Shown piece by piece: positions 20,159 to 36,344 of a stretch of 64,000 bases of DNA. Source of the stretch: an uncultured Agathobaculum sp. (GTDB lineage Bacteria > Bacillota > Clostridia > Oscillospirales > Butyricicoccaceae); the NCBI GenBank assembly GCA_944384725.1, contig CALWUJ010000004.1, positions 33,189-97,188 of the forward strand. The letters run 5' to 3'. Each line of letters begins with the position of its first letter. Within the stretch, counting starts at the first letter, position 1. The position numbers were made by a program, and so were the translations under genes. The notes below the pieces were generated by a model that saw nothing but the letters and a program-made list of their open reading frames with translations, was not told the origin of the DNA and searched no databases.

Positions 20159-20187
20159 TTGACTTCCAAAAGGAAAAGACTTATACT
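20159..20187 (+). promoter_or_regulatory. sigmaA promoter of L7Ae-str operon
   Basis: TTGACT-N17-TATACT. Confidence 0.7.
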
Positions 20188-20216
20188 GATGAAGTATGCC
20201 GTATAGGAGGGTTAGT

Positions 20217-20459
20217 ATGCTTTCAGAACTTCGCACGGCGCACAAAGTGATTGGCGTGAAACAATCCAAAAAAGCGATTCGGGACGGCAAAGCCGAAGAG
20301 GTTTTTGTGGCGCTCGATGCTGAAAAACGTGTGGTCGGTCCGGTTTATGAGCTATGCAGTGAAACAGATACCAAGCTCACGGAAATCACCACCATGACCG
20401 AACTCGGAGACGCAGTCGGAATTGATGTCGGCGCGGCAGTAGTTGCGGTTTTGCGCTGA
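20217..20459 (+). CDS. ybxF: L7Ae-like K-turn-binding protein (YbxF/RplGB)
   Basis: VIG.KQ..KAI..G.A..VFVA.DA, ELG.A.GIDVGAA; canonical position upstream of rpsL. Confidence 0.88.
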   Translation: MLSELRTAHKVIGVKQSKKAIRDGKAEEVFVALDAEKRVVGPVYELCSETDTKLTEITTMTELGDAVGIDVGAAVVAVLR

Positions 20460-20524: not shown

Positions 20525-20944
20525 ATGCCAACTTTTAACCAACTCGTCCGTAAGGGTCGCGAGGCAGTCGTTTACAAATCTACGGCACCGGCTCTGCAGG
20601 TAGGCTACAACTCTCAGAAGAAGAAGGCCACCGATCAGTCCGCTCCGCAGAAGCGTGGCGTTTGCACGACGGTTAAAACCATGACGCCGAAGAAGCCGAA
20701 CTCTGCGCTTCGTAAGGTTGCTCGTGTTAAGCTGACCAACCAGATGGAAGTTTCCGCTTACATCCCGGGCGAAGGTCACAACCTGCAGGAGCACTCGGTT
20801 GTAATGGTTCGCGGTGGCCGTGTTAAGGACCTTCCTGGTGTCCGTTACCACATCATCCGCGGCACGCTGGATACTCAGGGTGTAGCGAACCGCCGTCAGG
20901 CTCGTTCCAAGTACGGCGCGAAGCGCCCGAAGGCAGGCAAGTAA
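20525..20944 (+). CDS. rpsL: 30S ribosomal protein S12
   Basis: [31 protein letters not shown]. Confidence 0.99.
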
Positions 20945-20989
20945 TTTTGCCACCCACAAGGTTTTGCGAGAATTAAAAGTTTTCAGCAA

Positions 20990-21097
20990 AGCACACTCAT
21001 GCTTTGTCTGAGGCGTTTTATATCCGATTATTTGATAAACGGGTATTTACCTCGGACAGGCATTACAACGGCTGTCATATAGGCACGCCGGAGTACC
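20990..21097 (+). ncRNA. Putative S7-binding cis-regulatory RNA in rpsL-rpsG spacer
   Basis: Manual fold gives three-way junction with UACAAC and CGGAGU segments resembling the 16S rRNA S7 site. Confidence 0.5.
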
Positions 21098-21132
21098 TAT
21101 GAAATCAAATTATTTTGAAGGAGGGAAGTAAA

Positions 21133-21603
21133 GTGCCAAGAAGAGGTAATGTCCCCAAGAGAGACGTTCTGCCCGATCCGCTTTATAATTCCAAGCTCGT
21201 CACCAAGCTGGTAAACTCTATCATGCTCGACGGCAAGAAGGGCGTATCGCAGAAGGTTGTTTATGGTGCTTTCGATATCGTCCGTGAAAAGACCGGACGT
21301 GAACCGCTGGAGGTTTTCACCGAAGCGATGGAGAACATCATGCCGTCGCTGGAAGTTAAGGCGCGCCGTGTAGGCGGTGCTACCTATCAGGTGCCGATGG
21401 AAGTGCGTCCGGAGCGTCGTCAGACCCTGGGCCTGCGCTGGATCACCAAGTATGCCCGTGCCCGTTCTGAAAAGACTATGCGCGAGCGTCTGGCCGGCGA
21501 GATCATGGATGCCTGCAACAATCTGGGCGGTGCTGTCAAGAAGCGCGAGGATACGCACAAGATGGCGGAAGCAAACAAGGCGTTTGCACACTATCGCTAT
21601 TAA
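21133..21603 (+). CDS. rpsG: 30S ribosomal protein S7
   Basis: GTG start, [28 protein letters not shown]. Confidence 0.99.
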
Positions 21604-28104: not shown

Positions 28105-28193
28105 TGGCGCAGCGGGTGGGATTCGAACCCACGTGCCGTTGCCGGCAAACTGATTTCGAGTCAGCCCCGTTATGACCACTTCGATACCGCTGC
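28105..28193 (-). tRNA. tRNA-Ser(CGA)
   Basis: GCAGCGG/CCGCTGC acceptor stem, G73 + encoded CCA, CTGAC-T-CGA-AATCAG anticodon arm, long variable arm, GGTTCGAATCC T-loop. Confidence 0.95.
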
Positions 28194-36209: not shown

Positions 36210-36214
36210 AATAT

Positions 36215-36300
36215 AAAGCAAGGGAGCTTCCGTTGGAGGCTGAGAGGAGGTTTCGACCTCGACCTTACCTGATTTGGATAATGCCAACGTAGGGATGCTG
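36215..36300 (+). ncRNA. TPP riboswitch aptamer
   Basis: GGGAGC...GCTGAGA...ACC...CCTGAT..GGATAATGCC.ACGTAGGGA signature upstream of thiD. Confidence 0.93.
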
Positions 36301-36344
36301 GAACAAGCTGGAACCGCACACAGGTGCGGTCATTTTCGGACGCG

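Follow-up and report, generated by a model that had tools for sequence, protein, structure and literature searches.

S7, a primary assembly protein, nucleates the head of the 30S ribosomal subunit. In E. coli, S7 represses the str operon through the spacer between rpsL and rpsG (PMC3616713; PMC10931766). According to Fu et al. (2013), the E. coli S7 RNA is confined to Gammaproteobacteria and acts on translation coupled to S12; they proposed two S7 sites, one of which (AGUAA/UGAAN at the base of H-III) is rRNA-like and resembles the base of h43 (PMC3616713). According to a 2024 review, regulation by uS7 has been studied only in E. coli, with a further hint from cyanobacteria (PMC10931766). As cited in these two papers, the work of Meng et al. 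(1989) concerned a cyanobacterial S12–S7 spacer with similarity to 16S rRNA; this is the spacer studied here, for which an rRNA likeness was likewise claimed, but in another phylum (PMC3616713; PMC10931766). In another study, Naville and Gautheret (2010) described rpsL-leaders as predicted attenuators that lie upstream of rpsL and carry intrinsic terminators, and discussed S7 as a possible ligand (PMC2965389). These attenuators belong to the same operon as the Clostridial element reported here; however, they are sited 5′ of rpsL and have terminators, whereas the Clostridial element is found 3′ of rpsL and is terminator-free.

The ribosomal protein leaders of Firmicutes and Clostridia (L10, L13, L19, L20, L21, S4-Clostridia, S10, S15, and others) are elements of the same kind as the one reported here, each covarying and confined to one gene and one lineage. 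None of these, whether in Rfam or in the set of 20 published by Eckert and Weinberg (2020), precedes rpsG or has S7 as its assigned ligand (PMC7247131). A search of 200 supplementary files of a microbiome structured-RNA catalogue returned no S7 entry (PMC8040213), and the searchable literature contained no description of an S7 leader for Firmicutes. The element in the Clostridial rpsL–rpsG spacer has the consistent position before rpsG and the covariation-backed structure of a ribosomal protein leader, and it is a widespread one, apparently undescribed so far.

Locus and Predicted Fold

The window is a stretch of 64,000 nt from an uncultured Agathobaculum species of the order Oscillospirales (contig CALWUJ010000004.1). 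The operon in it carries, in order, an L7Ae-like gene (20196–20459), rpsL, rpsG, and fusA. The first of these is an 87-aa open reading frame in the gap between rpoC and rpsL, which we take from its position to be an L7Ae-family (YbxF-type) gene. A sigma-70-type promoter-like site (TTGACT-17-TATACT, 20159–20187) precedes this frame and is probably the operon promoter. The start codon of rpsG is GTG at 21133–21135, and the spacer measured from the end of rpsL at 20944 is 188 nt long, as had been stated in the original prediction, which was made from the letters of the window. For the spacer's plus strand, the predictions gave no promoter and no terminator. We presume that rpsG is the regulated gene and that S7 is the ligand. 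The features of the locus are as follows.

20525–20944, plus strand: rpsL, ribosomal protein S12 (open reading frame and translation; synteny by tblastn kept in every examined locus)
20961–20992, plus strand: hairpin P0 (minimum-energy fold; restricted to the genus of the window and close relatives)
20999–21063, plus strand: P1, or arm 1, with strands 20999–21013 and 21050–21063 (folds, covariation)
21064–21068, plus strand: linker J1/2, UACAA, with family-wide conservation limited to its final A (21068)
21069–21090, plus strand: P2, or arm 2 together with the closing pair C21069–G21090, with loop 21077–21081 and bulged C21086
21091–21104, plus strand: invariant single-stranded core G-AGUACC-UA-UGA-AA, with GAGUACC at 21091–21097
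21105–21118, plus strand: hairpin P3, UCAAA/UUUGA, with a 3′ strand that continues into the Shine–Dalgarno sequence (covariation)
21117–21135, plus strand: extended Shine–Dalgarno sequence GAAGGAGGGAAG (21117–21128), a 4-nt spacer, and the start codon GTG (21133–21135)
21133–21603, plus strand: rpsG, ribosomal protein S7 (open reading frame and translation; tblastn identity 69–99% in all loci)

The folding energy of the spacer is −62.6 kcal/mol, compared to −39.8 ± 4.0 for dinucleotide shuffles (z = −5.7), and none of 200 shuffles was as good. The 111-nt core of the spacer reached a z-score of −5.3, and these two scores place the fold beyond chance. The minimum-energy fold of the spacer contains P0 as a 5′ hairpin, then arm 1 and its inner hairpin (21020–21046), arm 2, and a small hairpin beside the Shine–Dalgarno sequence. 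The strands of P1 form 14 base pairs in the window, with one bulged U and two G-U pairs, and its apical part includes the conserved UUUUAUAU at 21016–21023 and the inner hairpin. The strands of arm 2 are 21070–21076 and 21082–21089; the linker in front of it had been taken as UACAAC (21064–21069) in the original prediction. An extension of P2 by UAC/GUA, which appears in the minimum-energy fold, was rejected because the U that it needs is present in only ~20% of sequences. Around P3, CCU at 21096–21098 can pair with AGG at 21119–21121, and this pairing recurs in single-sequence folds. The CCU/AGG closure is made of invariant bases, which carry no covariation signal; its third pair is lost where the U is replaced by G (12% of order sequences).

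Comparison with Rfam 15 by Infernal cmscan, using all 4227 models, gave no family match in the spacer at gathering thresholds. When E-values up to 10 were allowed, the spacer gave four irrelevant matches of 14–16 bits, compared to thresholds of 47–100 (best E = 0.24). In the window as a whole, the only Rfam matches are a TPP riboswitch at 36210–36313 on the plus strand (64 bits) and a tRNA at 28108–28193 on the minus strand.

Assembled metatranscriptome contigs from four studies carry the 3′ end of rpsL, the spacer, and the start of rpsG on single contigs. These contigs, which show neither transcript ends nor strand, weakly suggest that rpsL and rpsG are co-transcribed. On metatranscriptome contigs from other community members, the rpsG start region is joined at 21111–21116 to leader variants of their own, such as ...UUUCGAGUACCUAUGAUAUCAUUAUG; versions of the motif from several species are therefore present in the RNA libraries.

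The 3′ half of P0 (GCAAAGCA) is able to pair alternatively with the 5′ strand of P1. In the genus of the window, positions 20961–21010 hold three alternating pairings (GUUUUGC/GCAAAGC, GCAAAGCA/UGCUUUGU, and P1), an arrangement that is attenuator-cascade-like. An upstream anti-P1 hairpin was considered as a switch and rejected; it is not kept family-wide, and the pairing score of own partners was 14.3, compared to 13.2 for swapped ones.

A transcription attenuator or metabolite riboswitch that controls read-through from rpsL into rpsG–fusA would be in keeping with the leaders of rpsL operons elsewhere, which are predicted attenuators (PMC2965389), and with the resemblance of P0, the alternative pairing, and P1 to competing hairpins in the genus of the window. 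We nevertheless hold this to be extremely unlikely, as the plus strand of the spacer has no terminator-like hairpin followed by a U tract, the competing upstream pairing is not conserved, contigs from RNA libraries pass through the spacer, and the context is a ribosomal protein gene and not metabolism. Translational control is the most likely mode, because the spacer is without terminator or promoter and the contigs run through it.

Covariation of the Helices

RNAalifold applied to a plain MAFFT alignment of 38 diverse sequences recovered P3 alone, with covariation, since the sequences of P1 and P2 do not align. A covariance model was therefore used, which was built from an 18-sequence seed and matched each of 100 non-redundant loci exactly once. 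In the Infernal alignments, whose fitting to the model favors structure and which the slid controls share, 89.3% of cells were paired in 100 sequences of the order (38–56% in slid controls), with 347 double-change cells (55–89 in slid controls) and a covariation score of 0.473 (at most 0.088 in slid controls), while 47 sequences of other orders gave 87.2% of cells paired (32–50%), 262 double-change cells (at most 64), and a score of 0.611 (at most 0.108). Compensatory changes in the order alignment were found in all 12 modelled pairs of P1, in all three of P2, and in two of the four pairs of P3; the 12 modelled pairs of P1 and the three of P2 covary in the other-order alignment too, and P3 likewise retains its pairing there by compensatory changes. 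The covarying pairs of P3 in the order are pair 3 (A-U 92, U-A 7) and pair 4 (U-A 61, A-U 13, U-G 17).

J1/2 and P2 were partly misregistered in the first model alignment, and P2 was therefore re-examined by an anchored hairpin search. Of 130 sequences, 129 have a hairpin that ends 0–1 nt before AGUACC; the median length of its uninterrupted helix is 7 base pairs. For P1, strands matched with their own partner had a pairing score of 15.5, compared to 10.2 with partners from other genomes. The model-fitted covariation agrees with these three independent checks, namely, P3 from RNAalifold, P2 from the anchored search, and P1 from own and swapped partners. P1 and P2 are real helices, and the rpsL–rpsG spacer of Clostridia has a conserved covarying RNA structure.

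These data also bear on the three-way junction into which the original prediction had placed both arms. Arms 1 and 2 are borne out by the fold and by covariation. The helix that was to close the junction as an analogue of h29, ACUC (20995–20998) with GAGU (21091–21094), is at chance level: in the 100 sequences 38% of its cells were paired, compared to 39.6% after shuffling and 29–42% in slid controls, with 0 compensatory changes. Nor does this helix appear in the minimum-energy fold of the spacer or of the core, so that the junction in its proposed form is not confirmed.

Consensus and Lineage Variants

A consensus was drawn from 147 aligned sequences, of which 100 are from the order and 47 from other orders. 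The base of P1 is RUGC/GCAY in this consensus, with GUGC/GCAC in most orders and AUGC/GCAU in the window, and UUUAUAUAU is found near the top of P1 in columns that are conserved in both the order and the other-order alignments. P1 is followed by a linker of 1–4 nt ending in A and then by a short P2 closed by C-G. This A is directly 5′ of P2 in 105 of 127 sequences, and the linker positions preceding it (−2 to −13 before P2) are variable across the 127 sequences. On the 3′ side of P2 come the invariant GAGUACC, K, R, UGA, a hairpin, AAGGAGGGAAG, four bases, and GUGCC. The A, G, U, A, C, and C of the core are 100% conserved across the 100 sequences of the order, and GAGUACC is found in 46 of the 47 sequences of other orders. 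The Shine–Dalgarno region AAGGAGGGAAG comprises 11 nt that are invariant in 45 of 47 other-order genomes, and rpsG mostly starts with GUG; this degree of conservation should exceed the needs of ribosome binding alone. Among 29 relatives, the full spacer is conserved inside the genus, and other families of the order keep sequence only in the 3′ part.

The hairpin that follows GAGUACC differs between lineages. In Oscillospirales it has the form UCAU-loop-AUGA and continues into the Shine–Dalgarno sequence. In many other orders it is longer and opened by AUGA itself (AUGAUA...UAUCAU), and is followed by GAAAAGGAGGG. Others have CUUAA/UUAAG, which overlaps the Shine–Dalgarno sequence. In many members outside Oscillospirales, the hairpin stops 4–5 nt short of the Shine–Dalgarno sequence and there is no overlap.

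The UUUAUAUA(U) tract in the apex of P1 is kept class-wide (~70–85% per position) although the flanking helix sequence varies; possible roles are contact with a protein or a site for RNase or S1. An internal promoter formed from the UUUAUAUA tract was also considered and rejected, as no plus-strand promoter is predicted for the spacer and the spacings judged by eye do not fit.

The invariant core may also be looked at as a translation signal, in which GAG-UACCU-AUG would be a weak ribosome-binding site with a tiny upstream frame or a decoy start, and its translation would unfold P3 and adjust initiation on rpsG. In 167 of 176 sequences the triplet is AUG or GUG, GGAG is found 5 nt upstream of the AUG in the genus of the window, the AUG of the window itself (21099–21101) opens a 10-codon frame that stops 1 nt before the GTG of rpsG, and the rpsG start region of E. 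coli reads GGAGUAUUUCCAUG. However, these frames have 2–18 codons in any of the three frames, with no conserved peptide or stop position, and most members have just GAG as a ribosome-binding site. Furthermore, pairing with U (A-U or G-U) in the AUGAUA/UAUCAU hairpins accounts equally well for the alternation of A and G. A conserved upstream reading frame was rejected on account of its varying length and frame, and we consider a role of the core as a ribosome-binding site or decoy very unlikely.

Distribution in Clostridia

An exact-pattern scan of species genomes with AGTACC-NN-TGA-NN-TC-N(5-35)-GAAGGAGGGAAG found at least 120 loci, and all listed matches bear Oscillospirales-type names. Among the matches listed, all 115 that have S7 in the locus carry the motif between rpsL and rpsG, where it ends 3–5 nt before the start codon. 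The length of the spacer is 104–336 nt across loci, and the shortest spacers (about 104–130 nt) are filled entirely by the motif. Five genus members with spacers of 304–336 nt have an extra conserved GC-rich segment in the first ~130 nt, directly after the rpsL stop; this segment upstream of the leader could be another structured element.

When genomes were drawn evenly from the order, the model matched 133 of 151, with one match each; among the high-quality genomes of this draw, 122 of 127 were matched, and 29 of 30 families were represented. An even sample across the class had matches in 119 of 151 genomes, including about 113 of 145 (~78%) from other orders, and about a fifth of the sampled other-order Clostridia genomes had no model match. 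A draw of the phylum outside Clostridia yielded one weak match of 26 bits among ~117 genomes. This near-absence outside the class indicates that the model does not simply match any rpsG start region. Collectively, the order, class, and phylum draws show that the element is class-wide in Clostridia and extends beyond the genus of the window. It is single-copy in each genome and was directly 5′ of rpsG in every inspected locus.

Comparison With the E. coli Operator and 16S rRNA

Compared to the gammaproteobacterial S7 operator, the Clostridial leader is found in the same rpsL–rpsG spacer, before the same gene, and is likewise a multi-helix structure. The two differ in two respects. First, the E. 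coli spacer is 96 nt long and has, as described, H-III with a 4- to 8-nt bulge and a three-stem junction with CCA/UUGGR (PMC3616713), whereas the spacer of the window has no UUGG, arranges P1, P2, and P3 in series, and has no alignable homology to the E. coli operator. Second, the Clostridial spacer of 104–336 nt has a strong Shine–Dalgarno sequence of its own, while translation in E. coli is coupled to S12. A further likeness is that the operator carries AGUAA/UGAAN and the Clostridial leader an invariant AGUAC; UGAA, which may be compared with the UGAAN of the operator, stands before the Shine–Dalgarno sequence in most Oscillospirales and in about half of the other Clostridial members.

The spacer of E. 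coli K-12 ends in ...CCUGAAUUAACAACGGAGUAUUUCCAUG, and the rpsG start region there is the GGAGUAUUUCCAUG given above. E. coli K-12 and the window share the 7-mers ACAACGG and CGGAGUA, between which P2 sits in the window: just before rpsG, E. coli K-12 has AACAACGGAGUAUUUCCAUG, and positions 21065–21095 of the window read ACAACGG-[P2]-CGGAGUACCUAUG. This sharing could be chance or the trace of a common start region recognized by S7.

The rRNA site of S7 includes the h28/h29/h43 junction with the linker 933–939 GCACAAG, and h43 is contacted first (PMC13004024; PMC13674486). In 16S rRNA as a whole, the site spans two junctions, the three-way h28/h29/h43 as well as the four-way h29/h30/h41/h42. 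The genome of the window is without an assembled 16S, and a same-genus genome was used for the comparison.

The original prediction had likened the leader to h29/h30/h41, with a junction closed by ACUC/GAGU, arm 1 as h30, and UACAAC as the UACAAU around U1240. It had further equated arm 2 with h41 and GGAGU with the CGGAAU before h29. We find this model very unlikely. Every pairing that it lists (ACUC/GAGU, arm 1, and arm 2, along with the linker UACAAC) is literally present in the window, and the best local match between the spacer and 16S falls exactly on h30-3′/U1240/h41-5′, with 21 of 27 positions identical. However, 24 of 300 shuffles equal the score of this alignment, and the closing helix is at chance level and outside the minimum-energy fold. 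A conserved UACAA(U/C)-GGC linker, as in 16S 1235–1243, was found only in part of the genus of the window; with anchoring on P2, four genus members have 12–13 of 17 linker positions in common with the 16S string, and all others have no more than 9. UACAA does not occur in the sister genera within the family, which instead have CGACGAC, CCACAC, CAAAAC, and similar sequences. The likeness of the arm 2 loop to h41 is specific to the species of the window, and the sequence of arm 2 varies freely among relatives.

With the closing helix at chance and the linker confined to part of the genus, the h29/h30/h41 mimic is not a family property. The mimic is contradicted at the family level and could survive only as a genus-specific add-on. 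What holds of the predicted clostridial regulatory element is the conserved covarying structure of the spacer, and what does not hold is h29/h30/h41 mimicry as a family trait. The GAGU noted in the original prediction is invariant and is contained in the 7-nt invariant GAGUACC, and the context of this tract is a better fit to h28/h29/h43.

The 16S strands of the same-genus genome read ...G933-CACAA-[h29] ... [h29]-U-AGUA-[h43]-GAAU..., and the leader invariants read ...GCAC-N-A-[P2]-G-AGUA-CCK-[hairpin]-(U)GAA.... The two share the order of their elements, that is, a helix ending in GCAC, a short A-containing linker, a helix, AGUA, and a helix. They differ in that GCAC is paired with GUGC in the leader, while C934–C936 are unpaired linker residues in 16S; that P1 of the leader is closed by its own loop and P2 is capped, as in a circularly permuted miniature; that CCK is extra after AGUA in the leader; and that a counterpart of h41/h42 is absent family-wide. 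Judged by two 4-nt strings and the order of the helices, we infer that the leader invariants fit the h28/h29/h43 half of the S7 site better than h29/h30/h41. It is possible, and we put it forward tentatively, that the leader is a circularly permuted miniature of 16S h28/h29/h43 in which P1 corresponds to h28, P2 to a capped h29, and P3 to h43, with GCAC-A and AGUA shared, and that it has come by convergence to share AGUA(A)...UGAA with the E. coli operator, to which it is unrelated.

Proposed Function

We propose with moderate confidence that the rpsL–rpsG spacer holds an uncatalogued Clostridial cis-regulatory RNA, which is most likely an S7 autoregulatory leader acting on translation. Gene context and precedent suggest S7 as the ligand, and we infer both the direction of control (repression) and the occlusion of the Shine–Dalgarno sequence. 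In the proposed mechanism, S7 in excess over 16S rRNA would bind the P1/P2/P3 junction around GAGUACC. The bound S7 would stabilize P3 and the CC-GG closure beside the Shine–Dalgarno sequence, and the stabilized P3 and closure would block 30S subunits from initiating on rpsG. The outcome would be autogenous translational repression, comparable to that exerted by S7 in this spacer of E. coli, whose operator is unrelated. Counting against the mechanism are the invariance of the bases in the CC-GG closure, the loss of its third pair in 12% of order sequences, the hairpin that stops 4–5 nt short of the Shine–Dalgarno sequence in many members outside Oscillospirales, and the fifth or so of sampled other-order genomes with no match.

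Alternatively, the structured RNA may not sense S7. It might bind S12, the L7Ae-like protein, or an RNase, or it might be a ligand-free element for coupling, stability, or processing that sets the S12:S7:EF-G ratio. The structure, the position, and the invariant Shine–Dalgarno sequence fit any post-transcriptional role, the motif fills the shortest spacers so that a ribosome finishing rpsL would melt P1, and an RNA-binding L7Ae homologue is among the products of the operon. On the other hand, a specific protein site typically looks like this, with at least 7 invariant unpaired bases beside covarying helices, and no protein other than S7 has a precedent of binding the rpsL–rpsG spacer. As for the L7Ae-like protein, the element is not adjacent to its gene, and no K-turn is compatible with the covariation of P3, in which the GA of AUGA pairs with UC in Watson–Crick fashion. 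A K-turn was rejected by inspection, as the sole GA...GA arrangement (AUGA/AUGA around P3) is in covarying Watson–Crick pairs. We regard a role apart from S7 as rather improbable, and an S7 autoregulatory leader remains our preferred interpretation.

Significance

A single-copy leader with invariant nucleotides in most sampled Clostridia, which comprise dominant gut anaerobes and many clostridia, fills a gap beyond Gammaproteobacteria. Its covariance model should be useful for annotating genomes and metatranscriptomes. The invariant tracts of 7 nt and 11 nt present a compact, testable problem of S7–RNA recognition, and the leader would provide a second, independent natural RNA for asking what S7 recognizes in rRNA. 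If the tentative correspondence with h28/h29/h43 is true, the Clostridial and E. coli leaders would jointly define the smallest RNA determinant read by S7 as it nucleates the 30S head.
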